Below, one piece after another: positions 311-47,232 of a DNA stretch of 64,000 bases. The notes below the pieces were generated by a model, which worked only from the letters and a program-made list of their open reading frames with translations, did not search any database and was not told the origin of the DNA. Within the stretch, counting starts at the first letter, position 1; every line of letters begins with the position of its first letter. Source of the stretch: Opitutaceae bacterium (lineage in GTDB: Bacteria > Verrucomicrobiota > Verrucomicrobiia > Opitutales > Opitutaceae); NCBI GenBank assembly GCA_035334485.1, contig DAOQKI010000002.1, positions 7,511 to 71,510 of the forward strand. Direction: 5' to 3'. The translations under genes and the position numbers were made by a program.

Positions 311-437
311 CGTCTTCGCGGTCTTCGCGCGCTTGGCGGTGACAGTGATCGGCGCCCTGATTGGTGAACCGCTAAGGCCGCTAAGGTCGCGAAGTCCGAG
401 CCGGTCTTCGTGGCCTTCGTGAGCTTCGTGGTGAACC
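311..437. repeat. CACGAAG/CTTAGCGG nested-hairpin element, copy A1 (inverted orientation, lacks one outer arm)
   Basis: CGTCTTCGCGGTCTTCGCGCGCTTGGCGGTGAC...GAACCGCTAAGGCCGCTAAGGTCGCGAAG...GGTCTTCGTGGCCTTCGTGAGCTTCGTGGTGAACC. Its reverse complement is collinear with copies A2 and A4. Confidence 0.85.
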
Positions 438-453
438 GGAATCGTCCGACTGA

Positions 454-1665
454 CTAACGGGCGAAGACCTGGGTGATCTCCTTGAGGCCGACGCCGAGTG
501 CGGCGTGGGCAATCTGGTCCAGCGCCGCCTCGTCGCCCTGCAGGTGGATCGTCTGGTGGACATGGCTCGCGCTGCCGCCGGGCGCGAGGGACAATGCCGG
601 GGAGGACGTCTCCAGTTCGTAGAAGTGTCCGAGGCCCTTCGCGCCGGTCGCGAGCGGGCCGTCGTTGTAGCTGTTCACGACGTCGCCGCTGAACGGGTGC
701 TCCTGGTGTTCCCACATCGAGTTCACGTAGTCCGTCGCGCCCTTGGGCAGCGTGTAGTGGACCAGCGTCAGCGTGTGGCTGGCGGCGTCGTAGCTGCCGA
801 GCAGCGACTTCGCGCGCCGCGGCGGAAAGCCGATCTTGCTGCGATGGTTGGCGTCGCCGCGGAAGAAGACGCGGCCGTCCTTAACCACGAGCCGCTCCGC
901 CGGGACCTTGCCAAAATACGTGTCGTTCACGACCGGGCCGCGCTCGGCCTCGCTGCCTGTCTCATAGGGAACCACGATCGTTGCCGTGGGCGAGGCGTTG
1001 AACATGCCGAGGATCCAGATCGAGAGGAGCCCGCTGGGTTTTTCCCACGCAGCCTTCCCGGTGTTGCGCACGGTGTTGGCCGATTCGAACGCCACGGCCC
1101 CCACGCCTGCCGGGAGCTTGAGGCCGAGGTCCTTCAGGGCGGCGTCCGCGGCGAGCAGGCGCAGGGACCGGGTGACCTCGAGTTCGAATTTCGTGCCCGA
1201 GTAGTTGGTCAGGTGGATCTCGCGCCGGCACACCACCTGGTCGGTCGTGGCGCTGACGACCTCGAACGGCTCGGTGTCGATCGCCGCCGGCGTGAACCAG
1301 TGGTCGAAGTCGAACTTCACCCCCGGCGCGAAGAAGATCGAGTACTGCCCGCCCTCGGGCCCGAGCCAGAACCGGTCCTCGCCGCCAAACACGTTGATGT
1401 GCGCCGCCACCTGGCCCGACGCGATGAGCTCGCGGTTCACCCAGCCGTAGCTGTCGCCGCCCGCCCCGCCCGCCGTGCTGGTCATGATCCGGCCCTGCCA
1501 GGCCGGGACGACGGCGACGCGCGCCCGGCCCGACGCGTCGGTGAGCTCGAGCACCTTCTGGTGCTGGCGCAGGAAGGCCACGTCGTCGCCAAAGGTGGCG
1601 GCGCGGGCCGGGGCGAGGAGAGCCGCGGCGGAGGCCGCGGCCAGGAGCAGGTGGGACAGTTTCAT
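454..1665 (-). CDS. secreted protein of unknown function (possibly DUF6786-type; family name unverified)
   Basis: 403-aa ORF with ATG at 1665-1663 and signal peptide MKLSHLLLAAASAAALLAPARA. GC3-rich codons. It lies 19 nt downstream of the GH172-like gene on the same strand. Confidence 0.75.
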   Translation of the reverse strand: MKLSHLLLAAASAAALLAPARAATFGDDVAFLRQHQKVLELTDASGRARVAVVPAWQGRIMTSTAGGAGGDSYGWVNRELIASGQVAAHINVFGGEDRFWLGPEGGQYSIFFAPGVKFDFDHWFTPAAIDTEPFEVVSATTDQVVCRREIHLTNYSGTKFELEVTRSLRLLAADAALKDLGLKLPAGVGAVAFESANTVRNTGKAAWEKPSGLLSIWILGMFNASPTATIVVPYETGSEAERGPVVNDTYFGKVPAERLVVKDGRVFFRGDANHRSKIGFPPRRAKSLLGSYDAASHTLTLVHYTLPKGATDYVNSMWEHQEHPFSGDVVNSYNDGPLATGAKGLGHFYELETSSPALSLAPGGSASHVHQTIHLQGDEAALDQIAHAALGVGLKEITQVFAR

Positions 1666-1684
1666 GGGGAAAGGCGGGCGCGGG

Positions 1685-2815
1685 TCACTTCACCGGGTCG
1701 GGCACCGCGGTCCAGTGGTCGATCGGCAGTCGCTCCGCCACGGGCGGCAGCGGCGGGAACTTCAGGTGCGGCTCAGTCTGGTACCAGTAGGCGACGGACG
1801 AGTAGTCGTCGCCGCGGTTGTTGTTCGTGCCGTGCTCGATCGAGACGCGGATCGACTGGTCGAAGGTCACCGGGTCCTCGAGGTGGAAGCGGTACATCGA
1901 GTGGCGGCCGGTGTAGTCCGGGTGGGCGTTACCTTTCCGCGAGTAGCCGAAGTACGGGAAATTGTACTCGCGGTTCAGGAGGTTGAAGTTCCACGCGCCG
2001 GCGAAGTAGTCCTCGAGCCCCGTGCCGTTGAGCGTCGGGCGAGCGTCACCGTCGATGGTCATCATGTCGTCGCCCTCTCCCCACCATCCGGTGGAGAGCG
2101 CCTGGATGTGCAGCACCACGCCGACGTAGTGGCCGCGGCCTTTGGCCTCCATGATCAGGTAGTTGTTCTTCCCGTCGACGTTGGGCGCCCCGTCGGTGGC
2201 CTTCGTGCGCTCACGGTGCCACCACGCGTGGAAGCGTCCCTGCCCCTCCGTCGCCTTGGCCGCCGCCGAGCCGGGAACGTAGCTCTCGTAGTCGACGTAG
2301 TAGTAGAACGCCCCGATGGGCTTCTCGCCCTGGTTCTCGATCTCGATCCGCGCCCCGCGCGAGAACGGCATCGGGAAGAAACAGTTCATGGCGCGGTCCG
2401 CGACCGCGAGCGGCGCGCTCGCCCAGTAGTTCGGCTCACCGAAGCCGAGGCCGAAGAAATCCCCGATCGGCGCCTCGATGCTCGGGTCGGCCTCGCCGTC
2501 CCAGTACGCACGCAGCACGATGCGACGCAGGTGGTACATCTCGGGCGACGAGATGGTCACCCAGATGTGGGTTACGGTCCCGGCGCCGCTGAGCTCGGCC
2601 AGCGTGGCCTTCTGGCCGGGGCCGATGCCCGAGAGATAATCGTGGTTGCCGCCGGTGCGGTCGTAACTCGACACGCGCCCGCGCTTCACGCCCTCGCGCA
2701 GGTTCGGCAGGTCGCGAAGCCCGCCAAGCGACGAGGCCGGGGACGGGGCGCCTTGGCCGAGGGCCGCGGCGGAGAGAAGCAATGCGCAGGACAGGGAAGC
2801 CAGCAGTCGTCTCAT
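1685..2815 (-). CDS. secreted DUF2961 / glycoside hydrolase family 172-like protein
   Basis: Track ORF is 1685..2863; I chose the ATG at 2815-2813 (MRRLLASLSCALLLSAAALGQG signal peptide). Blocks RVSSYDRTGGNHDY, THIWVT, LRAYWDGE, PIGDFFG, NCFFPMPF, GTGLEDYF, RFHLEDP, SSVAYWYQ match the DUF2961 signature as I know it. Paralogue at 38565..39647. Confidence 0.85.
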   Translation of the reverse strand: MRRLLASLSCALLLSAAALGQGAPSPASSLGGLRDLPNLREGVKRGRVSSYDRTGGNHDYLSGIGPGQKATLAELSGAGTVTHIWVTISSPEMYHLRRIVLRAYWDGEADPSIEAPIGDFFGLGFGEPNYWASAPLAVADRAMNCFFPMPFSRGARIEIENQGEKPIGAFYYYVDYESYVPGSAAAKATEGQGRFHAWWHRERTKATDGAPNVDGKNNYLIMEAKGRGHYVGVVLHIQALSTGWWGEGDDMMTIDGDARPTLNGTGLEDYFAGAWNFNLLNREYNFPYFGYSRKGNAHPDYTGRHSMYRFHLEDPVTFDQSIRVSIEHGTNNNRGDDYSSVAYWYQTEPHLKFPPLPPVAERLPIDHWTAVPDPVK

Positions 2816-2910
2816 GGCGCAGGGGTGCGGGGTGACAGCGGGGGAAGCCCCAGCCTGAACCACCCCGTCCGAGCGTCAACCCCCGCGTCACGCGAAGGCC
2901 GGCCGGGCCG

Positions 2911-10283: not shown

Positions 10284-10850
10284 CTATTCGGCCCGGCCCT
10301 TCCCGGCGGCCGCGTCGGCCGCCTCGTCGGTGACGCGCTTGAACACGTACACGATGGGATCGTTGCGGGTGCTGCGCAGCTCGATCAGCGTGAGCTGGGC
10401 GCCGTTGGCCGAGACGCGGTAGTCGCTCAGGATGTTCACCGCGCGCTCGCCCTGCTGGGTGGCAAGCACCAGGTCGGCGCTGGTGCGGAGCAGCCGGCCG
10501 CCGTCGAGCAGCTCGGTGCGGATGCGCTTCGTCCGGTCGCCGCCGACGTAGGCGCCGAGGTGGCGGTTGTCCGGCCACCAGTTCACGGCCACGCGGTTCA
10601 CCGCCTGCGTCAGGTCGAGCGGCGTCACCTCGTCGTACGTGCGGCGGCCCGCGGCGTACTGACGGGTGAGGGTCACATGCGGACCCTCCACCGTAATGAC
10701 CAGCCGCAGCGCGCCCCACGCGCTGAGCTCGGTGCTGCGCGCCGGGTCGTAGCGCCAGATGCCCGCGAGACGGTGCGCGTCGGGCGCGGTCTCCGCGGCG
10801 CCGGCGGTCGCGACCGCCAGCCACAGGCCCAGAAGAATGAATCGGTGCAT
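10284..10850 (-). CDS. small secreted lipocalin-like beta-barrel protein, copy 2
   Basis: ATG at 10850-10848 (MHRFILLGLWLAVATAGA signal peptide), then GIWRYD. It ends 16 nt before GxGYxYP copy 2. Collinear similarity to 4592..5125 (e.g. ..YVGGDR.K....E.LDGGR.L......L..QQG........YR.SA.G..L...ELRSTR......YVF.R). Confidence 0.7.
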   Translation of the reverse strand: MHRFILLGLWLAVATAGAAETAPDAHRLAGIWRYDPARSTELSAWGALRLVITVEGPHVTLTRQYAAGRRTYDEVTPLDLTQAVNRVAVNWWPDNRHLGAYVGGDRTKRIRTELLDGGRLLRTSADLVLATQQGERAVNILSDYRVSANGAQLTLIELRSTRNDPIVYVFKRVTDEAADAAAGKGRAE

Positions 10851-10915
10851 GACGACCCCCACCAACGTCCGCCGGGGCCGATTTTCAAACCCGATATTCG
10901 CGAATATTCCCTCGG

Positions 10916-13201
10916 TCAGAGCGGGCGGCAGGTGAACGACGTCACCAGGTCAAACGCGCGGGCCGTCGCCAGCCGCGCCTCGAGGTGCCAGAGCGGCTCG
11001 ACGCGGAAGTCGATCGAGTTCTCGCGCTGGCGGAGCTCGTCGGCCCAGGGCGCGTTCAGCACGAGCTCCCAGCCGTCGACCCGCAGCACGGCGCGGCGGC
11101 CCTCGATCTGCCACGGCCCGCGGGTGTGAAGGTTGAACGCCAGCGCGGCCGGCGCCAGCAGCTCGCCGCAGTCCCGGACCTGGAAGGTCTCCGGCTCGTC
11201 GGCGCTGAGCTCGCGGACACAGGAGGACATGACTCCGCGCCAGACGTGGCCAAGGTCGACGCGGACGCGCAGCCGCCGGGCGTCGCCCTCCCCTTCCGGA
11301 ATGACGGCCTGCTCGACACTGCCTTGGTTCAGATAGATGCCCTCGGCCGTGACCGGCGTGAGCGTGTTGTGCATCTCGGTCCGTTTGAGCACCTGGGTGC
11401 GGAGGTCGTCGTAGCGCACCTGGCCGCGATCCAGCAGCACCGGGATCTGGTCGAGCTCGAGGAGGAACGAGCCCTTGTCGAAGTGAGTGTGCGAGGCCTT
11501 CGCCTTGGCGCCCACGACATGGAGCCGGACGGACCGGCCCGCGGCAGTGCGGCGGCGGCTGGTCAGGTGGCCGGTCTGCGGGAGCCGCGCGAATTCCGGC
11601 ACGATCGAGACCGGCGGGGCCAGGCGGGTGGGCCCGGCGATGAACGCGAACACGCCCTCGGTGAAATACTGGTCGTAGTAGCCGAGCGGGCGCCGGCGGG
11701 TCAGGCACGCGGCCGCGACCCGGGCGTAAACGCTGTCAGGGAACACCGCGGCGAGGAGCGCCACGGTGTCACCCACGACGAGGTCGGTGGTGTTGTCACC
11801 CTCGGTGACCACCTTGCCGGGCTCCATCGCGGACAGCGCGGCGACGAAATCGGCGGTGTGGACGAACTGCGGCGGCAGCAGCGGAGCGACCTCGCGGCCG
11901 CGGGCCCGCGCGTAGGCGATCAGGCCGGGGAGCACGGCGTGCATCGTGACGGAGAAGTAACCCAAGCCCTCGTCGGTGCCGCCGTCGGGCAGGACATAGT
12001 TGGCCATGCCGGCTTGGAGATCGCCCAGCGCGAGCTCCGTGTGGGTCCGCATGCGCGGCCACGCCGTCTCGAGGTAAAGCCCCGCGAGCAGCCGGGCCCG
12101 GCAGAACCACGGGCCCTGATTCATGGTGTAGAGGTAGTCCCACTTGAGCATGTCGCGCTCGATGACCGCGAGGCCCTTGTCCCACAGCACCTGCTGCGCG
12201 AGGTACCGGGCACGGGGCGTGAGGGCGAAGTCGTACCAGTCGAGCAGCAGCGCGGCCGCGGTGGTGGCCATCTCCTCGTTGAAGCAGCGCTGATCCCACA
12301 CGCTGCCCCGGGCCCGGCTCTCGGCCGACTGCGCCCACGACGTGGTGTGGAGCAGGCACATCAGGTAGCGCAGCGCATGGAACCCGAGCGCGCGGTCGCC
12401 GTTGACGAGGCCGACGAAGCCGAGGACCAGCGGCTCGGAAAAATACGTGGCGCGGCCCGACTCGCGGGCCCGGATGTAGCGCTGGTCGGTCTGCGGGAGG
12501 TAGTCGTCGAGCTGGTCCTCGGGTGAGCGGGCGAGGTACTGCCGGGCGCGCTCCTCCATGAGCCGCCAGTGGTCGCTCCAGTACGGCAGCGCTCGCTTGG
12601 CGCGGAGCGCCGGCAGGTCGTCGACGCTGAACAGCAGCCCGCGGGCGAGCCGCGGCTCCGGCCACTCCTCGGGCGGCAGAATAAGTCCCGTCCACCGGCC
12701 ATCGTAGCGCGGACGCGCCGCCTCGAGCTCCGCCACGAGAGCGGCGCGGGCGACGCCCCACCACTGGAAGCTGAGATGCACGGTCGGCGTGTCGGTGGCG
12801 GTCAGGGAAACGCGCACGGCCTCCACCGGGCGCTCGCCGATCGGGAGCGCCAGCTCATGCCGGCGCCCGCGGCCCGTCACCGGCGCGCCGAGCGGCGACC
12901 ACTGGCCGCGACGGCAGGCCTCGAACACCAGCGTAACGTGGGCGGGTGCGACGTAACAGAAGACAAACTGGTCGAAACGGTCGGGCAGGCCGGACACCGC
13001 CATGCCGAAGCGCGCCGCCAGCTGACCGGCGGGCGCGAGGTCCCAGGAGAGCTTGGTGCCGTCCCAGCCAAAGTCGCGCCGGAGGCCGCGGGCGGCGCCC
13101 GGCTCGAGCGTGAGGGGCAGCTGCTCGGCAATCGTCGCGTCGTGGAACGGCGCGAACATGGACTCGGCAGGCGTGAGTTCGAACAGCTGGGTCGGAGGCA
13201 T
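10916..13201 (-). CDS. cytoplasmic heparinase II/III-like (alginate-lyase-fold) protein
   Basis: 761 aa, ATG at 13201-13199, with no signal peptide. The C-terminal block AKASHTHFDKGSFLLE resembles the H.H.D..SF motif of heparinase II/III-like domains, preceded by a long helical region. Confidence 0.7.
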   Translation of the reverse strand: MPPTQLFELTPAESMFAPFHDATIAEQLPLTLEPGAARGLRRDFGWDGTKLSWDLAPAGQLAARFGMAVSGLPDRFDQFVFCYVAPAHVTLVFEACRRGQWSPLGAPVTGRGRRHELALPIGERPVEAVRVSLTATDTPTVHLSFQWWGVARAALVAELEAARPRYDGRWTGLILPPEEWPEPRLARGLLFSVDDLPALRAKRALPYWSDHWRLMEERARQYLARSPEDQLDDYLPQTDQRYIRARESGRATYFSEPLVLGFVGLVNGDRALGFHALRYLMCLLHTTSWAQSAESRARGSVWDQRCFNEEMATTAAALLLDWYDFALTPRARYLAQQVLWDKGLAVIERDMLKWDYLYTMNQGPWFCRARLLAGLYLETAWPRMRTHTELALGDLQAGMANYVLPDGGTDEGLGYFSVTMHAVLPGLIAYARARGREVAPLLPPQFVHTADFVAALSAMEPGKVVTEGDNTTDLVVGDTVALLAAVFPDSVYARVAAACLTRRRPLGYYDQYFTEGVFAFIAGPTRLAPPVSIVPEFARLPQTGHLTSRRRTAAGRSVRLHVVGAKAKASHTHFDKGSFLLELDQIPVLLDRGQVRYDDLRTQVLKRTEMHNTLTPVTAEGIYLNQGSVEQAVIPEGEGDARRLRVRVDLGHVWRGVMSSCVRELSADEPETFQVRDCGELLAPAALAFNLHTRGPWQIEGRRAVLRVDGWELVLNAPWADELRQRENSIDFRVEPLWHLEARLATARAFDLVTSFTCRPL

Positions 13202-13217: not shown

Positions 13218-13287
13218 GTCGCAGGTCGAAGGTCAAATGTCGAACGCCCGGGCCGGCCCCTTCGACCTGGGACCTGCGACGTTCGAC
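13218..13287. repeat. inverted heptamer arrays GTCG(A/C)AG and complement
   Basis: Left arm is GTCGCAGGTCGAAGGTCAAATGTCGAACG. Right arm is CCTTCGACCTGGGACCTGCGACGTTCGAC. It lies between the heparinase-like gene start and the PhyH copy 1 stop. Confidence 0.85.
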
Positions 13288-13297: not shown

Positions 13298-14122
13298 TCA
13301 GCCTTTGCCGGCTTCCTCGTTGCTCACCGGCTTGAAGCTCGGGCGGCCGTAGCGCTGGGTGGGCGGAGTGCCGTACGGGTTGTGGCGGAACTCGTCGACG
13401 CCGCGGCACAGGTAGATCTTGAAGTTCGGGTTCACCGCCAGGTCGTTCTTCACGTTGGTGCCCGAGTAGCGGATGGTGAGGCCGGCGCGGCGGCGGTCCG
13501 AGGGATTGCCGGGCGAGCCGTGGATGGCGCGGTCGTCGTGCAGCGAGCACTCGCCGGCCTTGAGCCGGAACTGCACGGCCTTGGCCGCGTCGAAGTCCGA
13601 GCCGTCCTCCAGCTCGAGCGACAGCACCGACTGGGTCTGCGACGAGCGGCGGTGCTTGATGAGCCCGCCGCGGTGCGAGCCGGGCAGCAGCTTCATGCCG
13701 CCGTTCTCCTCGTCGACGTCATCGAACGCGAGCCAGACGGTCACGGAGTGGTGCGGCGCCATCGGCCAGTAGTAGGCGTCCTGGTGCCAGCCGACGGTGG
13801 CCTGGTTGCGCGGCTCCTTGATGAAGAAGTTGCTGGCCCAGGCGTAGAAGTTCGGCCCGAGCACGCCCTCGACGAGGTCGAGGATGCGCGGGTTCATGAC
13901 GATATCGTAAAGGTAGGTGCTCGTCTCGTGCCACTCGCGGATGTCCTTGGTGGTCTCGCCGGGCTTCAGCAGGGCGAGCAGGTTGGGCAGCTCGGCGTTG
14001 ATCTTCGCCATCTCCTCCCGGGTGAAGATCGGGGGGAGGCCGAGCAGGTAGCCGTTCTCGTGGTAGAACTTCTGCTGGGCGGCGGTGAGGCGATAGGGAT
14101 TGGGAGCGGTGGCGGTGGACAT
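13298..14122 (-). CDS. phytanoyl-CoA dioxygenase (PhyH) family Fe(II)/2-oxoglutarate oxygenase, copy 1
   Basis: Track ORF is 13298..15052; ATG at 14122-14120 (MSTATAPNPYRLT...), 274 aa. Facial triad WHQD ... H (VGWHQDAYYW, AIHGSPGN). Confidence 0.85.
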   Translation of the reverse strand: MSTATAPNPYRLTAAQQKFYHENGYLLGLPPIFTREEMAKINAELPNLLALLKPGETTKDIREWHETSTYLYDIVMNPRILDLVEGVLGPNFYAWASNFFIKEPRNQATVGWHQDAYYWPMAPHHSVTVWLAFDDVDEENGGMKLLPGSHRGGLIKHRRSSQTQSVLSLELEDGSDFDAAKAVQFRLKAGECSLHDDRAIHGSPGNPSDRRRAGLTIRYSGTNVKNDLAVNPNFKIYLCRGVDEFRHNPYGTPPTQRYGRPSFKPVSNEEAGKG

Positions 14123-16149: not shown

Positions 16150-16238
16150 GAACACCACTCTCGCAGCTTCGGTCCGGGTTGGCAATGGCCCGCAGTCACC
16201 TTTGGTGGTGAATAAACACCATTGAAAGCCAAGGCGGC

Positions 16239-16277
16239 CCCGCCCTCGTGTCACGTAATACGTGACACGAGGGCGGG
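16239..16277. promoter_or_regulatory. perfect 19-nt-arm palindrome in a divergent promoter region (candidate operator)
   Basis: CCCGCCCTCGTGTCACGTA-A-TACGTGACACGAGGGCGGG read directly. It lies between PhyH copy 2 (start 16149, minus) and the SDR gene (start 16300, plus). Confidence 0.55.
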
Positions 16278-16299
16278 CCGGCGTAGGGTGGCCAGCGCA

Positions 16300-18617: not shown

Positions 18618-18779
18618 GGTTGCCACGAAGGGCACGAAGACCGATCCGCGCTGCTTCGCGGCCTTAGCGGACTTAGCGGTAACCAAGACCAAACCGTCGA
18701 TCCGTTTCACCGCTAAGCTCGCGGAGGGCGCGAAGACCTGATCGTCCGGGCTTCGTGCGCTTCGTGACCTTGGTGGCAA
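18618..18779. repeat. CACGAAG/CTTAGCGG nested-hairpin element, copy A2 (full length)
   Basis: Outer arms are GGTTGCCACGAAGGGCACGAAGACC / GGGCTTCGTGCGCTTCGTGACCTTGGTGGCAA. Inner arms are CTTCGCGGCCTTAGCGGACTTAGCGGTAACC / TTTCACCGCTAAGCTCGCGGAGGGCGCGAAG. Confidence 0.9.
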
Positions 18780-20472: not shown

Positions 20473-20689
20473 AACGCTCAACTTTCAACGCTCAACGTTC
20501 AACGTTCAACTTCGGGCAAGGCGAACGCCGGACGTCGAACGTCGGACGCCGGACGTCGAAGGGCGCAGACCGCTGGGCCTAGGGCGCGAGCCGACTTGGG
20601 CGTCGAGCGTTGAATGTCGAACGTTGAGCGTTCCGGTCCGACACTTCGGCGTCCGGCGTTCGACGTCCGATGTTCGGCGTTCGTCCGGC
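20473..20689. repeat. compound element with two heptamer families in a-b-a'-b' order
   Basis: a is TCAACG(C/T) x about 5 (20473-20513). b is G(C/T)CG(G/A)AC x about 5 (20524-20561). a' is CGTTGA-type (20604-20633). b' is GTCCGGC/GTTCGAC-type (20645-20689). Confidence 0.85.
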
Positions 20690-28525: not shown

Positions 28526-28555
28526 GTTGAAGGTTGAAGGCTGAGAGTTGAAAGG
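28526..28555. repeat. tandem heptamer array GTTGAAG-type (about 4 units)
   Basis: GTTGAAG GTTGAAG GCTGAGA GTTGAAA GG read directly, starting 10 nt after the DUF1624 stop. Confidence 0.7.
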
Positions 28556-28579
28556 CGGAGGCATACGGCCATCCGCCTT
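28552..28579. terminator. hairpin between convergent genes (terminator candidate)
   Basis: AAGGCGGA-ggcatacggcca-TCCGCCTT, between the DUF1624 gene (end 28516) and the UDP-glucuronate decarboxylase gene (end 28612). Confidence 0.5.
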
Positions 28580-28611
28580 CAGCCGGACGCAATCAACCGT
28601 TCCAGTGCGGC

Positions 28612-30615: not shown

Positions 30616-30648
30616 ATTCCGGAATCCGGATTCCGGAATCCGGAATTT
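30616..30648. repeat. self-complementary heptamer array (A/T)TCCGGA x about 4
   Basis: ATTCCGGAATCCGGATTCCGGAATCCGGAATTT, in the 64-nt gap between the convergent CPBP and tgt genes. Confidence 0.7.
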
Positions 30649-31810: not shown

Positions 31811-31989
31811 ATTGCGGATTGCGAATCGCGGATTGCGGATTGGGGAGCCAGCGGGCGGTTTTGGCAAGGGAGGAGGTACGGAGCCATAGGCCAAATGGCC
31901 TGCTGGCAGGGCAATTGCGGATTTGCCACTCGATGGGTTCCCTGTTCCCTTGGGCAATCCGCCATTCGCGATCCGCAATCCGCAATTCC
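31811..31989. repeat. inverted heptamer arrays ATTGCGG / CCGCAAT flanking a divergent promoter region
   Basis: Left arm 31811-31843 is ATTGCGGATTGCGAATCGCGGATTGCGGATTGG. Right arm 31955-31989 is CAATCCGCCATTCGCGATCCGCAATCCGCAATTCC. An extra partial unit occurs at 31912-31927. Confidence 0.85.
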
Positions 31990-32570: not shown

Positions 32571-32695
32571 GTAGCTGGTAGTTAGTAGCTGGTAGCTAGC
32601 ATCAAATCCCAAAGTCTAGGACCTCCTCACAAATTTCGCTGTCTTCCTCACGGCTCCCTCATCCTACCAGCTACCATCTACTAGCTACTATCTAC
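32571..32695. repeat. inverted heptamer arrays GTAGCTG/GTAGTTA and complement
   Basis: Left arm 32571-32600 is GTAGCTGGTAGTTAGTAGCTGGTAGCTAGC. Right arm 32664-32695 is CTACCAGCTACCATCTACTAGCTACTATCTAC. The 63-nt centre is comparatively AT-rich. Confidence 0.85.
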
Positions 32696-32705: not shown

Positions 32706-33164
32706 ATGCGCTGCCCGAAATGCACCTCCATTGAGGACAAGGTCATCGACTCCCGGATCTCGAAGGAAGGCTCGACGATCCGCCGCCGGCGCGAATGCCT
32801 CGAGTGCGGCCATCGCTTCACGACGACGGAGGGGTTGGTCCGGGACGGCATGGTGGTGATCAAGCGCGACGGCCGGCGCGAGGAGTTTTCCCGCGAGAAG
32901 CTGCTCCACGCGGTGCGCGCCGCCTGCCACAAGCGCCCGGTCGACGCCGAGCAGATCGGCATGCTGCTGGAGGACGTGATCGACGTGCTGGAGGCCCAGT
33001 ACGAGAGCGAGATTCCCTCCGCGGCGATCGGCGACGCGGTCATGCAGCGCCTCAAGGCCGTGGACCAGGTGGCCTACGTGCGCTTCGCGAGCGTGTACAA
33101 GGAATTCCGGGACGTGACGGAGTTCATGACCGAGATCAGCGCGCTGTCCAAGAAGCCGAAATGA
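32706..33164 (+). CDS. nrdR: transcriptional repressor NrdR (zinc ribbon + ATP-cone)
   Basis: MRCPKCTSIEDKVIDSRISKEGSTIRRRRECLECGHRFTTTE followed by an ATP-cone (VIKRDGRREEFSREKL...). Confidence 0.97.
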   Translation: MRCPKCTSIEDKVIDSRISKEGSTIRRRRECLECGHRFTTTEGLVRDGMVVIKRDGRREEFSREKLLHAVRAACHKRPVDAEQIGMLLEDVIDVLEAQYESEIPSAAIGDAVMQRLKAVDQVAYVRFASVYKEFRDVTEFMTEISALSKKPK

Positions 33165-33664
33165 GCCGCGACCGCGCCGACCTGCGCCGCCTCCACTTCA
33201 TCAACGCGTTGTTCGCGCACGCGACCGGTCACGACCTCTATCTCGCGGAGCAGATCAAGCAGGCCATCACGTTCAGCCTCTCCGACCTGGCGGCCCAGAC
33301 TGCCGCCCATCCGGATTACGCCGCGAGATTCGACACGGAGTTCAACGCGGCGGCCGCCCTGCTCATGGCCCGGCTGTTCTCGCATCTGCCGCGCCGGGGC
33401 TTCTACCACTGGGACGCCGCACTGACGCCCGAGGCCGCGACCCCGCTGTTCGCCCGCGCCGAGCTGATGGCGGGGCTGCGACACCTGGCCCGCTTCCGGG
33501 AATCGACGCTGCTGGTGACCAATCTCCGTCCCGCGCTGATCCCGCCCGAGCGCCGCGCCACGCCCCGCCGTCGCCGCGACTACGAGGACGCGCTGGCGTT
33601 CATCCAGGACCTCACCGCCGCCCGAACGACCCGCGCGGCGGAGCTGCAGCTGTTGTTTTTGTAG
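33161..33664 (+). CDS. hypothetical helical protein translationally coupled to nrdR
   Basis: The ATG at 33161 overlaps the nrdR stop (ATGA). 167 aa with GC3-rich codon usage throughout and no motif I recognise. Confidence 0.6.
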   Translation: MSRDRADLRRLHFINALFAHATGHDLYLAEQIKQAITFSLSDLAAQTAAHPDYAARFDTEFNAAAALLMARLFSHLPRRGFYHWDAALTPEAATPLFARAELMAGLRHLARFRESTLLVTNLRPALIPPERRATPRRRRDYEDALAFIQDLTAARTTRAAELQLLFL

Positions 33665-33804
33665 TAGCGAGTAGCGCGTAGCGGGTAGCGAGCATGTGGC
33701 GAGGCTTGCGGGAAGGACGGCTAGGACCGTCGTTGCCACCCAGCCGAATTCGATCACGCTGCTGCCTGCCTACTCGCTACGCGCTACCCGCTACTCGCTA
33801 CTCC
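33661..33804. repeat. inverted heptamer arrays GTAGCG(A/C/G) and complement
   Basis: Left arm 33661-33692 is GTAGTAGCGAGTAGCGCGTAGCGGGTAGCGAG and begins in the stop codon of the upstream gene. Right arm 33770-33804 is CTACTCGCTACGCGCTACCCGCTACTCGCTACTCC and ends 4 nt before the HIT start codon. Confidence 0.9.
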
Positions 33805-33808
33805 AAAA

Positions 33809-34160: not shown

Positions 34161-34253
34161 CTGGAGAATCGGAGATTGGAGTTGGGAGATGGAATACCCG
34201 CAGACCGCTGCCGGGGTATTCCAGCTTCCAGCTCCCAGCACCTAACTTCCACT
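34161..34253. repeat. inverted arrays of GGAG(A/T)TGG-type units around a GGAATACCC/GGGTATTCC stem
   Basis: Left arm is CTGGAGAATCGGAGATTGGAGTTGGGAGATGGAATACCCG. Right arm is CGGGGTATTCCAGCTTCCAGCTCCCAGCACCTAACTTCCAC. It lies between the convergent HIT and decarboxylase genes. Confidence 0.8.
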
Positions 34254-34275
34254 TGCCGGCGGCGCGAGGCGCCGC

Positions 34276-35535
34276 CTAGCGCAGGCCTGGGTAGTCGAGG
34301 GTGCCGAAGTGGTCGGCGAGGGTCTCGGCGCGGCGGATCAGACGGTAGTTGGTGCCGCCCTGCCAGAGGACCTCGGCGGAGCGGAGCTTGCCGTTGTAAT
34401 TGAAGCCCATCGCGTGGCCGTGGGCGCCGGTGTCGTGGATCACGAGCAGGTCGCCAATCGCGGGATCGGCAATCTCGCGGTCGACGGCGAACTTGTCGTT
34501 GTTCTCACACAGGGAGCCGGTGACGTCGTAGACCTTGCGCGGGCCGTTTTCCTTCCCGGGCACCGTGATGTGGTGGTACGAGCCGTACATGCCCGGACGC
34601 ATCAGGTTGGCCATGCAGGCGTCGAGCCCGACGTAGTCCTTGTAGATCGCCTTCTTGTGGAGGACGCGCGTGACGAGGTAACCGTAGGGTCCCGTGATCA
34701 TGCGGCCGCACTCCATCGCGATCCGCATCGGCCCGAGCCCGGCGGCGACGATGGTGCGCTCGTAGACCTCGCGGATGCGGCCGCCCAGCGCTGCCAGGTC
34801 GACCGCGGTCTGGTTCGGGCGGTACGGGATGCCGATGCCACCGCCGAGGTTGACGTACTCGAAGCGGATGCCGAGCTCGCGGCTCAGCTCCACGACGAGG
34901 GTGAACAGCATCTGGGCGGTCTCGACGAAGTAATCGGGATTGAGCTCGTTCGACGCGACCATCGTGTGGAGGCCGAAGCGCTTCACGCCCTTGTCGCGGA
35001 TCATCCGGTAGCCCTCGAACAGCTGCTCGCGGGTGAAGCCGTACTTGGCCTCCTCGGGCTTGCCGATGATGGCGTTGCCGGCCTTGAGCGGGCCGGGGTT
35101 GTAGCGGAAGCACAGCATCTCGGGCAGCTTCCCGCCAAGGCTCTGCTCGAGGAAGGCGATGTGGCTGATGTCGTCGAGGTTGATCAGCGCACCGAGCTGG
35201 TGGGCCTTCTGGTACTCGTAGGCCGGCGTGTCGTTCGACGTGAAGACGATCTGGTGGCCCTTGATGCCGACCGCCTCGCAGAGGCGGAGCTCGGCCAGGG
35301 ACGAGCAGTCGCCGCCGAGGCCTTCCTGCTTGAGCACCTCGAGCACGTACGGGTTCGGCAGGGCCTTCACCGCGTAGTGGTTCATGAACCCACCCGGCAC
35401 CCACGAGAACGCCTGGTAAAACGCGCGGGCGTTCCGGCGCATCGCCGCCTCATCGTAGAGGTGGAAGGGCGTCGGCACCTGGGCGGTGATGGCCTCGAGT
35501 TGTTCCTTGGTGAACGGGAGCGATTTGGTCGTCAC
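34276..35535 (-). CDS. lysA: PLP-dependent Orn/DAP/Arg decarboxylase family 2 enzyme, diaminopimelate decarboxylase-like
   Basis: The track start at 35559 is a TTG. I prefer the GTG at 35535-35533: (V)TTKSLPFTKEQLEAI..PTPFHLYDE. PLP-Lys context HYAVKALPN, GGGIGIPY, GSLCENNDKF. Substrate assignment is moderate. Confidence 0.7.
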   Translation of the reverse strand: MTTKSLPFTKEQLEAITAQVPTPFHLYDEAAMRRNARAFYQAFSWVPGGFMNHYAVKALPNPYVLEVLKQEGLGGDCSSLAELRLCEAVGIKGHQIVFTSNDTPAYEYQKAHQLGALINLDDISHIAFLEQSLGGKLPEMLCFRYNPGPLKAGNAIIGKPEEAKYGFTREQLFEGYRMIRDKGVKRFGLHTMVASNELNPDYFVETAQMLFTLVVELSRELGIRFEYVNLGGGIGIPYRPNQTAVDLAALGGRIREVYERTIVAAGLGPMRIAMECGRMITGPYGYLVTRVLHKKAIYKDYVGLDACMANLMRPGMYGSYHHITVPGKENGPRKVYDVTGSLCENNDKFAVDREIADPAIGDLLVIHDTGAHGHAMGFNYNGKLRSAEVLWQGGTNYRLIRRAETLADHFGTLDYPGLR

Positions 35536-36547: not shown

Positions 36548-37363
36548 ATGAAACTCACCTCGACCCAGATCGACCAGTTCCGGCGCAAGGGCTACGTGGC
36601 CGTGCCCGGCTTCTTCAACGCGCAGGAGACCGCGGCCCTGCAGGCCGACATCGCCCGCCTCAAGCGCAACGGCTTTCTGCGCAACGTCGCGACGGACGGC
36701 GACGGCAAGACCCAATCGTCCACGAAGCAGAACCTGCAGCTCTGTCCTGCGAACTTCTACAGCACGCTGATCCGCGCCTTGCCCTTCGCGCCCAAGGTCG
36801 TCGACGCGGTCACGAAGCTGATCGGCGCGGATATCACCCTCCACCTTGATCAGATCTTCCTGAAGCCCGGCCGGAGCGGCATGGGCACCGCGTGGCACCA
36901 AGACAACGCGTACTTCCGGATCCCCAAGCCGCTCCGTGGAACCGCCATGTGGATCGCGGTCCACGACGCGACGGCGGCGAACGGGACGATCCGAGTGATT
37001 CCCGACGCCTGGGAAGAGCCCCTGCCCCACCAGCGCGACGGGAACAGCGACCACCATATCCGCTGTTTCCCGGACGAGGCGAAGGCGGAGACCGTGGAGC
37101 TGAAGGCCGGCGGCGTGGTGTTCTTCTGCTACGGCACTCCGCACGCGACGGGCGACAACCAGACCGACACCGAGCGGGCGGGACTGGCGTATCATTTCCT
37201 GTGCGAGGACCAGACCGACGACGCGTTCTATTCGTCCGGCCGGATCGGCAATCCCCGTCCCCGCCTCACCGGCTCACGCGCGACAGGCGGCTTGGAGGAG
37301 TACGGCAACGTCATCGCCGGCACTTGGGACGCCGAGGTGGCACGGGCGGTCGCGCCGCGGTAG
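36548..37363 (+). CDS. PhyH family Fe(II)/2-oxoglutarate oxygenase, copy 3
   Basis: 271 aa. MKLTSTQIDQFRRKGYVAVPGFF, TAWHQDNAYF, TPHATGDN. Confidence 0.85.
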   Translation: MKLTSTQIDQFRRKGYVAVPGFFNAQETAALQADIARLKRNGFLRNVATDGDGKTQSSTKQNLQLCPANFYSTLIRALPFAPKVVDAVTKLIGADITLHLDQIFLKPGRSGMGTAWHQDNAYFRIPKPLRGTAMWIAVHDATAANGTIRVIPDAWEEPLPHQRDGNSDHHIRCFPDEAKAETVELKAGGVVFFCYGTPHATGDNQTDTERAGLAYHFLCEDQTDDAFYSSGRIGNPRPRLTGSRATGGLEEYGNVIAGTWDAEVARAVAPR

Positions 37364-37380: not shown

Positions 37381-37482
37381 GTCGAAGGTCGCAGGTCGAA
37401 AGGCGCAGGTCGACAGCGCGGCTTTGCCGCGGGTTGGTTAAGTTGGGAGTCTCCCTTCGACCCAGGACATTCGACCTGAGAC
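37381..37482. repeat. inverted heptamer arrays GTCG(A/C)AG and complement (same unit family as 13218..13287)
   Basis: Left arm 37381-37414 is GTCGAAGGTCGCAGGTCGAAAGGCGCAGGTCGAC. Right arm 37453-37482 is CCCTTCGACCCAGGACATTCGACCTGAGAC. Confidence 0.85.
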
Positions 37483-39647: not shown

Positions 39648-39740
39648 GCGGGGTTCGGAGTTCGGGTTTGCGGAAGGTGACCGGGGACAGGTGGCGATGC
39701 GAATCGTTTTTGGCGGTCCACCCACTCATCAGAGTGTTCT

Positions 39741-39835
39741 TTCACCACGAAGCGCGCGAAGCACACGAAGCCAAGTCATCGACTGACCTAGTCCAAACAC
39801 GAGCCTTGGTGCCCTTCGTGTCCTTCGTGGTTAAC
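39741..39835. repeat. CACGAAG element, copy A3 (short form: outer arms only)
   Basis: TTCACCACGAAGCGCGCGAAGCACACGAAG ...35 nt... CCTTGGTGCCCTTCGTGTCCTTCGTGGTTAACC. Confidence 0.85.
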
Positions 39836-43310: not shown

Positions 43311-43320
43311 GGGGTCGGAA

Positions 43321-43352
43321 GTAGCGAGTAGCGCGTAGCGGGTAGTGAGTAG
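43321..43352. repeat. single arm of the GTAGCG(A/C/G) heptamer array (near-identical to 33665..33692)
   Basis: GTAGCGAGTAGCGCGTAGCGGGTAGTGAGTAGG. Only a short complementary stub (GCTCGCTAC, about 43399-43407) remains, at the pdxJ 3' end. Confidence 0.8.
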
Positions 43353-43403
43353 GAAATCGGCGGGAAGAAGGAGGAAAAGTGCAGGGACGGTTTGAAATGC
43401 TCG

Positions 43404-44153
43404 CTACTGCCGCGGATTCATCCTCGCCTTCAGTTCGCGGACGGCTTCCTCGATGCCGGTGAAGAGGGCGCGGCTGATGATGCTGTGGCCGATGTTGAGC
43501 TCGTGGAGATGCGGCAGGGTCCGGATCTCGGCGATGTTGACGTAGTTGATGCCGTGGCCGGCGTTGACAGTGAGACCCAACTCGTGGGCCCGCACGCAGC
43601 CGAGCCTGAGGGCGTTGAATTCCTTGGTCCGGGCCGGCGTGTAATAGGCGTTGGCGTAGGCGCCGGTGTGCAGCTCGACGATCGGCGCGCGCAGCTTGGC
43701 AGCCAGGTCGATCTGCGCCTCTTCGGGGTCGATGAAGAGGCTCGTCTGGATGCCGGCGTCGGTCATCGCGTCAATCACCGCCTTCACCCGGGCGCGCTGC
43801 CCCACCACGTCGAGCCCGCCCTCGGTGGAGACCTCCTGGCGGTTCTCCGGCACGAGGCAGACGGTGGCGGGCTTCAGCTTCAGGGCGAACGCCGTCATCT
43901 CGGGCGTGCAAGCCATCTCAAGGTTGAGCCGGGTCGAGATGCTCTCGCGCAGGCGCCAGACATCGCGCTCCTGGATGTGGCGGCGGTCCTCGCGCAGGTG
44001 GACCGTGATGCCATCGGCTCCCGCCCGCTCGCCGAGCAGGGCAAGGGTGACCGGATCTGGCTCGACCGCGCCCCCGACGGTGGCGGGCGCTTCACGGTAG
44101 CGCGCCTGCCGGACCGTGGCGCAATGGTCAATGTTGAGGCCGAGCAGAATCAT
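43404..44153 (-). CDS. pdxJ: pyridoxine 5'-phosphate synthase
   Basis: Track ORF is 43404..44972; ATG at 44153-44151 (MILLGLNIDHCATVRQAR), 249 aa. HLREDRRHI, NLEMA, VCLVPE, ELHTG.YA, NAGHG.NY, LNIGHSII. Confidence 0.95.
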   Translation of the reverse strand: MILLGLNIDHCATVRQARYREAPATVGGAVEPDPVTLALLGERAGADGITVHLREDRRHIQERDVWRLRESISTRLNLEMACTPEMTAFALKLKPATVCLVPENRQEVSTEGGLDVVGQRARVKAVIDAMTDAGIQTSLFIDPEEAQIDLAAKLRAPIVELHTGAYANAYYTPARTKEFNALRLGCVRAHELGLTVNAGHGINYVNIAEIRTLPHLHELNIGHSIISRALFTGIEEAVRELKARMNPRQ

Positions 44154-44963: not shown

Positions 44964-45015
44964 GCCGCGCACTTCCCCCTCGCGTTAGGGCGCCGCGGCA
45001 CGCTAGGCGTGGGGG

Positions 45016-45537
45016 ATGCCTTCCGCACCGACCACGGACCAACGACCCAAGCGCGGCCAGCCCTGCCCCTGCGGCACGGGCCAGCTCTTCGAAGCGTGCT
45101 GCGAGCCCATCCTCGCGGGCCAGCAACAACCGGCGACGGCGGAGCAGCTGATGCGGGCGCGTTTCACGGCGCACGTGGCGCATGATTTCAAGTTCCTGCA
45201 CGAGTCCTACCGTCCGACCGCGGGCACGCCCTTCATGCCGGAGGAAGGCACGCCGTCGGTGACCTGGACCAAGCTCGAGGTGCACGCGCACGAGCTGACC
45301 GAAAACCCGGACAAGGCGTACGTGGACTTCTCAGCCTACGGCACGGAGGACGGGGTCGAGAAGGTGCTGCACGAGAAGGCCGAATTCCAGCGCGTGAACG
45401 GCCGATGGCTCTACACCCGCGAAGCCCGGCTCGGGCCCGCCCCGTACCGTTCGGCTGCACCCAAGGTTGGCCGCAACGACCCCTGCCCGTGCGGCAGCGG
45501 CAAGAAGTACAAGCACTGCTGCTGGGGCAAGAAGTGA
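45016..45537 (+). CDS. YchJ-family (UPF0225) protein with N- and C-terminal SEC-C zinc motifs
   Basis: 173 aa. N-terminal [13 protein letters not shown], central NTF2-like region [11 protein letters not shown]-terminal [18 protein letters not shown]. Confidence 0.85.
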
Positions 45538-45538
45538 C

Positions 45539-45742
45539 CTACGGGTGGTCGGGCGTCTGGCGCCGCGGGTCGGTTTCGACCTGCCGGCGCAGCGCGGCCA
45601 TGTTGTCGACGAGATTGGGATAGCGACGCCCCGCCGTCTTCGCCCTAGCCTGAGCCCAGGCGATGCTCTCAGCCGAGAGCTTGGCGCCGGTGCCGGTCTT
45701 GGGGCGCGGCTTTTTCCACGGCGGAGTGCGATGGCTGGGCAT
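45539..45742 (-). CDS. small basic hypothetical protein (possibly DUF5872-like; unverified)
   Basis: 67 aa from the ATG at 45742-45740: MPSHRTPPWKKPRPKTGTGAKLSAESIAWAQARAKTAGRRYPNLVDNMAALR... The GR.YPNLVDNM block is one I recall from small conserved proteins. Weak call. Confidence 0.35.
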   Translation of the reverse strand: MPSHRTPPWKKPRPKTGTGAKLSAESIAWAQARAKTAGRRYPNLVDNMAALRRQVETDPRRQTPDHP

Positions 45743-45911
45743 GGGGTGATTCGACCAAGCGTCGGGAGTCCGGGGCAATGCCAGACTGCGCCCGGCGCTT
45801 CTGACTTCTGCCGGACGCTTCTTCCGCCTAACCCCGGGAACCCATGGCAGGGTAGAACTTGATCGAGGCGCGCCGCGCTGGCCGGAGGAGTACGCGGCCA
45901 AGCCGGCGCGG

Positions 45912-46988
45912 CTACTGGGCCCAATCCATCGGGGCGGGCGGTACGAACGAGGAGTTCACCGCCACCGCGCCGCCGTTCTTCATGGAGTTGCCCACGGCCT
46001 CGAGGATCTCGACAACGTGCGCGGCCTGACTGCCGCTCGCGCGCTGGGGTCGGCCGGCCAGCATGGCCTGGGTCATGTCGTCGACCGCCCGCGCGAACTC
46101 GACGCCCTCGAAGGGTGACCGGATCAGCGGCACCGGCTCGTATTTTCCCCCGAAGGGAGCGAACTCGACCGAGGCATTGAAGCCCTGGAAACTGCCGAGG
46201 TAGACGCTACCGAGGTCGCCGTTGAACTCAATTCCCCCGCCCTGCTTGCCGCCGGCGACGTAGAAATTGGCCGACAGCCGGGCGGTGAGTCCGGCCTCAA
46301 ACTCCAGCATCGCGAGGACGTAATCGGGAGTCGTGATGGTGAACTTGCGCCCCTCCTTGGTGACCCGATGCGGGTACACGACCTTGCCGGTCGCGGTGAC
46401 CCGGCGCACCGGGCCGAACATGGTGGTGAGAAGCGTGAGGGGATAGACTCCGACGTCCCACTGGATGCCGACCTCGTAGAACGGCTCGGGATTGGGGTGC
46501 CAGGCCTCGATGCGGCCGTGGTTGATGTCGGCGTACACGAGGCGAACCGGGCCGGCCTTCCCGCTGCGGAGCAGCTTCCACGCGGTCTGCTGGGCCTCGC
46601 CCATGTAGGTGATGGGCGCGCTGCCGAGCCGCAGCCCGCGCGCGGCGGCCAGGTCGACCAGTTCCTTGGCGTCGGCGTAGCGCAGCGCGAGCGGCTTCTC
46701 GGTGTGCACGTGTTTGCCGGCGAGCAGGCACTGCTTCACGACCTCGTAGTGCGCGAAGTGGATCGTGAGGTTCACGACCAGCGCGATGCTCGGGTCGGCC
46801 AGCATCTGCGCCAGGCTGTCGTAGGCGCGGCCCCCGAACTTGGCAGCGAACGCCCGGGCGCGGGCGGGATCGAGGTCGGAGAAGCCGACCAGCTCGCACG
46901 TCGGGTAGGTCAGGATGCGCTCGGCATAGCGGTCGGCGATGTTGCCACACCCGACGATGGCAACGCGGATCTTCTGGGGAGAGGACAT
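45912..46988 (-). CDS. Gfo/Idh/MocA family NAD(P)-dependent oxidoreductase
   Basis: Track ORF is 45912..47519; ATG at 46988-46986 (MSSPQKIRVAIVGCGNIADRY), 358 aa. EKPLA motif in HTEKPLAL. Confidence 0.88.
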   Translation of the reverse strand: MSSPQKIRVAIVGCGNIADRYAERILTYPTCELVGFSDLDPARARAFAAKFGGRAYDSLAQMLADPSIALVVNLTIHFAHYEVVKQCLLAGKHVHTEKPLALRYADAKELVDLAAARGLRLGSAPITYMGEAQQTAWKLLRSGKAGPVRLVYADINHGRIEAWHPNPEPFYEVGIQWDVGVYPLTLLTTMFGPVRRVTATGKVVYPHRVTKEGRKFTITTPDYVLAMLEFEAGLTARLSANFYVAGGKQGGGIEFNGDLGSVYLGSFQGFNASVEFAPFGGKYEPVPLIRSPFEGVEFARAVDDMTQAMLAGRPQRASGSQAAHVVEILEAVGNSMKNGGAVAVNSSFVPPAPMDWAQ

Positions 46989-47061
46989 GGGGAACGGAAG
47001 TCCACCAATCACACCCGGCGCCCGGAGCCAAACCAAACCGCTCGGCCCGACGGGGTGGAGG

Positions 47062-47232
47062 ATTGCCACCAAGGACACGAAGCACACGAAGGTGGCGCTC
47101 TGCTGCTTCGCGGTCGTGGCGGCCTTGGCGGTCAATCCCCATCGACTCCGATCCGCTTCACCGCCAAGCACGCGGAGAGCGCGAAGCCAGCCAAGGTCTG
47201 GGCTTCGTGTGCTTCGTGCCCTTCGTGGCAAA
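47062..47232. repeat. CACGAAG/CTTGGCGG nested-hairpin element, copy A4 (full length)
   Basis: Outer arms are ATTGCCACCAAGGACACGAAGCACACGAAGG / GGGCTTCGTGTGCTTCGTGCCCTTCGTGGCAA. Inner arms are CTGCTTCGCGGTCGTGGCGGCCTTGGCGGTCAAT / CTTCACCGCCAAGCACGCGGAGAGCGCGAAG. It lies in the divergent gap between the Gfo/Idh/MocA and fatty-acid-hydroxylase genes. Confidence 0.9.

Follow-up and report, generated by a model that had tools for sequence, protein, structure and literature searches.

The 64,000-nt stretch analysed here (hereafter the window; contig DAOQKI010000002.1 of the Opitutaceae assembly GCA_035334485.1) has a G+C content of ~67%, and the genes mapped on it from codon statistics are chromosomal housekeeping genes, including those for SecA, Lnt, Tgt, GATase, NrdR, HIT, a LysA-like decarboxylase, DprA, AcpS, PdxJ and NrdAB. 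Between these genes lie short tandem arrays of degenerate 7-nt units, about two thirds of the sites being inverted pairs in which an array faces its complement, as well as four elements built on a 9-nt period (Table 1). An earlier note on this DNA had listed such arrays, and they were borne out at positions exact or a few nucleotides off: Tandem Repeats Finder reported period-7 arrays at all the coordinates listed and period-9 arrays at the four loci of the CACGAAG family that the note had named, and the letters were also read directly.

Under a uniform criterion of at least four copies and at least 75% self-match, 17 period-7 arrays were found in the 8.5 kb of intergenic DNA of the window and none in its 55.5 kb of coding DNA. 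In the shuffle control that the earlier note had proposed, only 0.05 ± 0.26 period-7 arrays are expected in shuffled intergenic DNA under the same criterion, and the other periods (5, 6 and 8-12) yielded 0-4 arrays in the window. Chance or base composition as the source of the arrays is ruled out by the shuffles and by this comparison of periods. All 17 arrays are confined to 13-44 kb of the window, and at least eight unrelated units occur within 35 kb. Among the 34 folded gaps of at least 40 nt, 14 bear arrays (convergent, 5 of 7; tandem, 7 of 17; divergent, 2 of 10), and within 13-47 kb arrays occupy about 13 of 25 gaps; the statement that almost every gap is filled was thus overstated. Three entries of the previous list are amended. 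The array at 28526-28555 has a decayed partner (Table 1). At 34161-34253 the array is present, its unit having a period of seven (GGAGATG / TTCCAGC) and not the eight letters of GGAG(A/T)TGG, and the array at 43321-43352, though real, is not a lone arm, as it faces a one-unit partner. The array at 39652-39670 was absent from that list. The region 48000-64000 contains no period-7 arrays; its G+C content is 0.59-0.67, compared with 0.65-0.71 upstream, and its genes look chromosomal, encoding NrdAB, two TPR proteins, a TonB-type outer-membrane barrel and a Tle1-like phospholipase.

Table 1 Repeat elements of the window. L011, L012 and L013 are relatives introduced in the text; n, any nucleotide.
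Position	Strand	Element and gap	Arrays and loop	Flanks and relatives
314-430		Partial 9-nt composite, convergent gap	(CTTCGCGnn)×3 314-338; (CGCTAAGnn)×3 370-394; (CTTCGTGnn)×3 406-430, then GTGAA	
13218-13287		Heptamer pair	GTCGAAG ×4 13218-13246; CTTCGAC ×4 13259-13287; 12-nt loop; unit order shuffled between arms	Between PhyH stop (13298-13300) and next start (13199-13201)
18624-18775		Full 9-nt composite, A-B'-B-A'	CACGAAG ×2 18624-18639; CTTCGCG/CTTAGCG ×3 18654-18678; CGCTAAG/CGCGGAG/CGCGAAG 18711-18735; CTTCGTG ×2 + CTTGGTG 18751-18775	
20473-20689		Two interleaved heptamer pairs	TCAACGY ×5.5 20473-20512 with 20604-20634; CGRACGY ×5.5 20522-20562 with 20644-20689; arm alignment 40 nt, 5 mismatches; RNAfold stem reaches ~45 bp	SecA stop and Lnt start
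28526-28601		Heptamer pair, convergent gap	GTTGAAG ×4 28526-28555; decayed partner CTTCAGCC...CAATCAACC ~28577-28601	Pair intact in L013 (6353/6425)
30616-30648		Self-complementary heptamer array, convergent Rce1/TGT gap	TCCGGAA ×4.5	L011 copy ~one unit shorter
31811-31989		Heptamer pair, divergent TGT/GATase gap	ATTGCGG ×5 31811-31843; CCGCAAT ×5 31955-31989; 112-nt loop	L012: right arm shorter by 21 nt (3 units)
32571-32695	+	Heptamer pair, intercistronic GATase>NrdR	GTAGCTN ×4 + GCAT junction; 68-nt loop; NAGCTAC ×4.5	9 nt downstream of stop, 10 nt upstream of ATG
33661-33804	+	Heptamer pair	GTAGCGN ×4 + GCAT; 80-nt loop; NCGCTAC ×5; variants in same order in both arms	First unit holds TAG stop (33662-33664) of 167-aa gene; end 4 nt from HIT ATG
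34161-34253		Heptamer pair, convergent HIT/LysA gap	GGAGATG-type ×4 34161-34192; CTTCCAG-type ×5 34217-34253	7-nt indel relative to L012
37381-37482		Heptamer pair, 3' of second PhyH gene	GTCGAAG ×5 37381-37414; CTTCGAC-type ×4 37453-37482	
39652-39670	-	Single heptamer array	GTTCGGA, 2.5 units	Ends 4 nt from GH172 start codon; 14 nt (2 units) longer in L011
39746-39829		Simple 9-nt module	ttcac-(CRCGAAGnn)×3 39746-39770; 34-nt loop; (CTTSGTGnn)×3 39805-39829	
43321-43408	-	Heptamer array with remnant partner	GTAGCGN ×5 43321-43352; one-unit remnant GCTCGCTAC ~43398-43408	Beside AcpS start; remnant contains pdxJ stop CTA at 43404-43406 (minus strand); 99% relative retains three units there
47067-47227		Full 9-nt composite, A-B'-B-A', divergent gap	47067-47091, 47106-47130, 47162-47186, 47203-47227	

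When each gap was folded with RNAfold, the arrays paired with a complementary array 12-112 nt away in predicted stems of 20-45 bp, the z-scores of the gap folds reaching -7. Explicit alignments of the arms (13218/13259, two pairs at 20473-20689, 31811/31955, 32571/32664, 33661/33770, 34161/34217 and 37381/37453) gave partner arms of 21-40 nt with 1-5 mismatches. The two arms may differ in unit number (2 vs 5, 5 vs 1.5, 5 vs 1), and the order of the variant units in one arm is no more mirrored in the other than in random permutations (mean z -0.04, none above 1.64; n = 35 informative pairs). At 33661/33770, where the earlier note had pointed to arms carrying their variants in the same order, this arrangement indeed leaves 0 mismatches against 2 for the strict reverse complement. 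As a general rule, unit-wise complements in the same order are ruled out: the arrangement is the better one in four pairs from two loci only, the strict reverse complement is better in 25 and 31 are tied, and the permutation test indicates that the order is unconstrained. The unmirrored order, together with the whole-unit arm indels described below, supports the proposal of a unit-level process rather than of one perfect stem maintained by selection.

The elements show no preference for a type of gap. Across phyla, tandem, convergent and divergent gaps contain 51, 19 and 9 elements, respectively, compared with 319, 98 and 71 gaps of these types (chi-square p = 0.60), as expected from the description of non-coding arrays in all three kinds of gap alike, and in the window a preference for gene 3' ends is not significant (Fisher p = 0.14). 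The distance from the stop codon to the element edge has a median of 10 nt and is at most 3 nt in 38 of 89 cases. In the tandem gaps of the window, a distance of 0-16 nt separates the outer ends of the two arms from the upstream stop and from the downstream start, and in two cases the stop codon lies inside a unit (Table 1). The stop and start codons that adjoin arms or lie within them were verified.

Arms that adjoin stop and start codons, strongly folding stems and the common orientation of the three GTAGC elements relative to transcription would all suit selected RNA structures: hairpins between cistrons or at 3' ends that would serve in termination, insulation or stabilisation or be cleaved (e.g., by RNase III), with pairing alone under selection and the sequence free to drift. 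Consistent with this, most heptamer repeats of Xanthomonas are transcribed (PMC4692102). Simple terminators had already been doubted, and rightly: no U-tract follows the arms, the loops are 12-112 nt long, compared with 3-8 nt in an intrinsic terminator, and the arrays form none of the 15 sites resembling terminators in 28-48 kb (10.4 ± 3.4 expected, not enriched). The Rfam check proposed earlier gave 0 matches at the gathering threshold in the whole window and 0 at E ≤ 1 in 28-48 kb. Moreover, about half of the arm mismatches are of transversion type, any G·U bias is at best marginal, and no consistent strand asymmetry was found in the folding energy of the window gaps. In divergent gaps the two arms would belong to different transcripts, and the large differences in unit number between arms also sit badly with selected pairing. 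Taken with the comparisons below, we consider it unlikely that selection on RNA pairing alone accounts for the elements.

To follow the arrays through related genomes, syntenic loci were found through homologues of the 167-aa protein (33161-33664), namely L011 (99%), L012 (97%), L013 and L014 (90%), L015 (85%), L016 (83%), L017 (84%) and L018 (81%); an 86% relative, P0008, was compared by gene coordinates only. Ten public contigs encoding the window NrdR (L001-L010), among them GCA_035335065.1, match the window at 99.99-100% identity (100% for nine) and belong to the same strain, so that they carry no comparative information. Same-strain contigs L002, L003, L006, L007 and L008, from independent metagenome assemblies, end in or beside arrays (30617, 33691, 34273-34279), indicating that the repeats fragment short-read assemblies of the window lineage. 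Period-7 arrays are common in the closest clade, where L011, L012, L013 and L015 have 5-10 of them per 16-20 kb; L016, L017 and L018 have few or none.

Between these relatives, indels in the arms comprise whole units (7, 7, 7, 14, 14, 14 and 21 nt), and those in the loops are of arbitrary length. The whole-unit arm indels are direct evidence of slipped-strand expansion and contraction, growth and shrinkage by whole units being the signature of replication slippage. In L011 (10290-10440), the loop of the element at 37381-37482 carries a 144-nt insertion that holds a different palindromic repeat, GTCATGCTGAACGGAGTGAAGCATC ... GAATGACAG, showing that loops can take further insertions. Substitutions accumulate in the arms at about the rate of synonymous sites. 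The window differs from L011 at 8.7% of arm positions, 9.3% of third codon positions and 10.0% of other intergenic positions, and from L012 at 18.7%, 22.9% and 19.6%, respectively; the sequence of the arms is therefore not conserved. Periodicity and an arm complementarity of ~90% nevertheless persist in orthologous gaps, which also speaks for a maintained RNA hairpin.

Units also change in concert. In the GATase/NrdR gap, five genomes have a homologous loop and the unit has switched in both arms together, from one to the other of GTAGCTN/NAGCTAC (window and L012) and GTAGCGN/NCGCTAC (L011, L015 and L016). The 9-nt element of the GH172/DprA gap reads CACGAAG/CTTCGTG in the window and CGCGAAG/CTTCGCG in both arms of L011 and L012. 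All three 'GTAGC' loci have the GCT form in L012 and the GCG form in L011. Within L011, the left arms of loci 1 and 2, which are 1 kb apart, share 35 of 36 aligned positions (an identical run of 33 nt when read by eye). Loci 1 and 3, which are 10 kb apart, share 87 of 119 aligned positions, loop included. Because both arms switch together, arms at different loci are near-identical and the order of variants is unmirrored, we infer copying at the level of units.

The gap at 33665-33808 has a different repeat in more distant relatives, with an 8-nt fold-back, GGAACTCA / TGAGTTCC, in L017 (4579-4679) and a 9-nt fold-back, CACGGAGnn / CTCCGTGnn, in L018 (10508-10593). Judged from sequence, this gap appears to keep a repeat-built hairpin across relatives while unit and period change, as would be expected if a hairpin were selected whatever its letters. 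By contrast, the GATase/NrdR gap of L013 is devoid of the element, measuring 7 nt (CCCACCC) against 144 nt in the window, with no clear duplication flanking the window copy, and a gap that lacks its element in some close relatives argues against a required RNA structure. In L015, the gap between the 167-aa protein and HIT genes (10519-10982) contains an inserted PDDEXK_3 (PF13366) gene at 10552-10953 that is flanked by inverted 9-nt arrays of the TACAGGAGG and CTCTCCGTT types and thus lies in the 'loop' of a fold-back array.

The module of the 9-nt family reads ttcac-(CRCGAAGnn)×3, loop, (CTTCGYGnn)×3-gtgaa, and the elements at 18624-18775 and 47067-47227, as well as a copy in L013, consist of a module followed by an inverted copy of the module, the outer arms of the L013 element forming a perfect 33-nt inverted repeat on direct reading. 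More distant relatives carry 9-nt arrays of the CACGGAA type (L016 and L017) or a fold-back of the CACGGAG type (L018). A metagenome scan with CTTCGTGNN ×3 returned at least 120 loci (L139-L258). Among the matches listed, 71 of 148 arrays have a CRCGAAG partner, the loops are 8-221 nt long, the contigs have 47-67% G+C, and the boundary ...AC-CACGAAG / CTTCGTG-GT... is conserved. One contig closest to Burkholderiales (L190) contains at least five elements of the family in 13 kb, and L225, closest to 'PVC group bacterium', and L218 are also multi-copy. The family is therefore not confined to Opitutaceae, as the unrelated Burkholderiales-like and PVC-like contigs indicate. No published description of the CACGAAG/CTTCGTG module was found, the literature search with the motif giving primer sequences only.

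These recurrent forms bring up a further possibility, namely that the elements are mobile and resemble repetitive extragenic palindromes (REPs), their hairpin-forming doublets (REPINs) or MITEs (miniature inverted-repeat transposable elements), with the arrays as terminal inverted repeats spread by a REP-associated tyrosine transposase (RAYT) or other transposase encoded elsewhere. Members of the GTAGC family (GTAGCGN/GTAGCTN, three loci) share AGCAT at the junction of arm and loop, and their loops are partly homologous from locus to locus, to which the L011 comparison of loci 1 and 3 adds. The tetranucleotide GTAG, a conserved feature of the REP 5' end, occurs in their units, and a GT[AG]G at the palindrome 5' end was present, in repeated form, only in this family. 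The 9-nt family, with its conserved ends (ttcac...gtgaa), its REPIN-like layout of module and inverted module (PMC3116915) and its multi-copy state in L190, looks the most REPIN-like dispersed element of everything examined. The L013 gap without an element would also fit insertion.

REPs come in one or a few families of conserved imperfect palindromes, with many copies per genome; the window has at least eight unrelated units, and in it the GTAGC (three loci) and 9-nt (four loci) families recur. Against mobility, the unrelated units of the window, and the nearly all-distinct 164 unit-locus combinations across genomes described below, would need as many recognition specificities. The elements are orthologous and old rather than recent insertions, and relatives differ by whole-unit indels, not by presence or absence with target duplications; the empty L013 site shows no evident duplication. 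Most families have loops with no relationship to those of the others, and among the 30 window proteins scanned there is no transposase and no RAYT (Y1 transposase) domain. Movement by a transposase is plausible chiefly for the GTAGC family and the 9-nt family, and as an account of the arrays at large we find it rather improbable.

To place the arrays in a wider frame, GTAGCNN ×4 was searched across phyla with one genome per species, giving at least 120 loci. The matches listed span Cyanobacteria, Streptomyces, Halomonas, Alcanivorax, Acidobacteriota, Planctomycetota, Chloroflexota, Bacteroidota, the candidate phyla radiation and others. Among them, a complementary array (at least 3 units, within 150 nt) accompanies 43 of 129 arrays, compared with 0 of 127 control windows placed 1 kb off; the 67% of arrays without a partner are hard to reconcile with selected RNA hairpins. 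The 866 kb around these loci in 120 genomes contain 112 more period-7 arrays of other units, many of them inverted pairs, whereas periods of 5, 6, 8 and 9 are represented by 20, 13, 6 and 9 arrays. Among the matches listed, the 164 combinations of unit and locus are nearly all distinct, and internal palindromy of the units shows no excess over shuffled units. The unit sequence is arbitrary, and the period is specifically seven. With the same architecture in many units across phyla, the suggestion of a lineage-specific system resembling REPs or bacterial interspersed mosaic elements (BIMEs) is not supported.

Arbitrary units also bear on the idea that the arrays are binding sites for a protein with a ~7-nt footprint, for which a cold-shock-domain or S1-domain single-strand binder acting on 5' or 3' untranslated RNA would be a candidate. 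The unit-level rather than stem-level organisation would suit such a role, as would single arrays directly upstream of start codons (39652-39670; cf. TAACTGA, PMC4679880), and CspB binds heptamer repeats with one protein per unit (reviewed in PMC4679880). On the other hand, the units have no shared motif and the arms change at the neutral rate; moreover, a binder without specificity has no need of repeats, and over 100 different units are too many for a specific one to recognise. We therefore judge binding-site arrays very unlikely.

We favour, with moderate confidence, the reading that the arrays are slippage-built fold-back arrays, homogenised at the level of units, and that they occupy non-coding DNA as far as the neighbouring stop and start codons. 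Slippage during replication, with a period of seven, would build the arrays outside coding sequence, and Mrazek's 2007 proposal, relayed in PMC4679880, is that 7 nt corresponds to the contact length of the polymerase and favours slippage. Register-free copying of units, with arms exchanging them by template switching and loci by gene conversion, would then keep the periodicity, the complementarity of arms and the similarity between loci. Arrays would expand until coding sequence is met, which would leave them flush with stop and start codons. In operons, the fold-back form may be tolerated since the upstream stop and the next start stay close, and the 20-45-bp stems could serve as intercistronic RNA hairpins for processing or stabilisation.

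Several points weigh against this slippage-based account. The comparisons cover 64 kb of the window genome and ~20-kb pieces of the relatives. No measurement here accounts for a period of 7 rather than 5 or 8, and template switching and gene conversion rest on patterns, not on direct observation. The AGCAT junction and the partial loop homology of the GTAGC family also fit a mobile element, and the within-hairpin G·T/A·C skew, although marginal (P about 0.05), leaves room for RNA-level constraint. Furthermore, relatives at about 30% synonymous divergence still have elements in the same gaps; this persistence, together with the 8- and 9-nt fold-backs in the same gap, could reflect selection for a hairpin rather than tolerance.

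A broader form of the slippage account would make heptamer fold-backs a general self-generating intercistronic class, in which sequence-independent period-7 slippage and template switching would produce, on the spot, hairpins able to pair in any register that are retained for keeping stop and start close or as double-stranded RNA processing sites, a functional analogue of REPs without a transposase. We regard this extension as unlikely; if true, it would account for the 'prime-number periodicity' noted across prokaryotic genomes. The window and its relatives (about 9%, 23% and 29% synonymous divergence) form a compact natural series in which array dynamics can be read directly, including whole-unit slippage, neutral-rate substitution, concerted switching, between-locus copying and complementarity at the level of units only. 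The results narrow the mechanisms: they disfavour classical terminators as well as binding sites specific for a sequence, and favour unit-level copying.

Two further features of the window were noted. Genes for PhyH-family dioxygenases occur at 13298-14122, 36548-37363 and 49808-50647, and each of the first two is followed by a GTCGAAG/CTTCGAC fold-back array. This co-occurrence may be a coincidence or an unexplained association; the two elements as relics of a PhyH gene duplication are ruled out, the proteins being 24% identical. In addition, a divergent gap holds a ~45-nt near-perfect palindrome, CCCCGCCCTCGTGTCACGTAATACGTGACACGAGGGCGGG, at 16236-16280, which has no tandem units, forms the strongest non-repeat hairpin of the window (gap z = -5.9) and may serve as an operator or bidirectional regulatory site.

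The window arrays are a dense local case of a bacteria-wide repeat type, not a new kind of element. Heptanucleotide precedents reportedly include the cyanobacterial short tandemly repeated repetitive sequences (STRRs) of Mazel 1990 and the long simple sequence repeats (SSRs) of Mrazek 2007. Contrary to the earlier note, which knew of no described element class, heptamer repeats, including inverted pairs, have already been published: they are the commonest intergenic tandem repeat in prokaryotes, and the authors of that survey say that nothing hints at their function (PMC6344855). The traits of the STRR/long-SSR type were found in the window, namely a head-to-tail 7-nt unit in at least three copies, restriction to or enrichment in non-coding DNA, and whole-unit copy-number variation between related genomes. 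STRR, long-SSR and SPADE repeats (PMC6344855) have in common with the window arrays the 7-nt unit, the head-to-tail arrangement (3-10 copies), the intergenic location, many units per genome, whole-unit length variation between relatives and the lack of a known function. Unlike STRRs and long SSRs, the window arrays are short (4-6 units) and degenerate instead of long and perfect, with unusually many inverted pairs. No earlier description of dense heptamer arrays in Opitutaceae or Verrucomicrobiota was found in the literature, and the window appears to be the first dense example there.

Inverted pairs have been described in Xanthomonas, where ~185 GGGAATC arrays include 70-75 inverted pairs whose type is kept between species while their length varies (PMC4692102). 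As in Xanthomonas, the window has intergenic heptamer arrays with complementary arrays close by on opposite strands, and site and pair type are kept. Xanthomonas has one dominant G-rich, quadruplex-forming unit, whereas the window has its many unrelated units, and no G-tracts for a G-quadruplex were found in GTCGAAG, AACGTTC, TCCGGAA, ATTGCGG, GTAGCKN or GGAGATG; the quadruplex interpretation therefore does not transfer. Geobacter metallireducens has heptanucleotide families, multi-copy and mostly intergenic, with 4-5 units in tandem and with some sites depicted as pairs that switch strand, including GGACCGG ×4 at 49 sites and MTYCTGA ×5 sites as such pairs (PMC2700814), and a Nostoc intergenic gap holds TTGTCAG ×3 together with its complement (PMC2408588). 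The Geobacter families resemble the window arrays in copy number, location and partial pairing, but are sequence-defined and have been read as global-regulator binding sites (regulation was proposed, not shown), whereas in the window the unit differs per locus. The TAACTGA repeats of Beggiatoaceae, cyanobacteria and Bacteroidetes (2-6 intergenic copies, often one to a few nucleotides from a start codon; PMC4679880) resemble the GTTCGGA array at 39652-39670. Unlike the window arrays, they use a single unit across taxa, almost never occur in pairs (a single inverted case among 170) and are oriented with the downstream gene. Finally, REP, BIME and REPIN elements (PMC3116915) share with the window arrays an extragenic, often intercistronic location, hairpin formation and concerted evolution, and the 9-nt family has REPIN-like doublets; REPs are single imperfect palindromes of one or few families moved by RAYTs, whereas the window elements are stems of diverse tandem units that change by whole-unit slippage.

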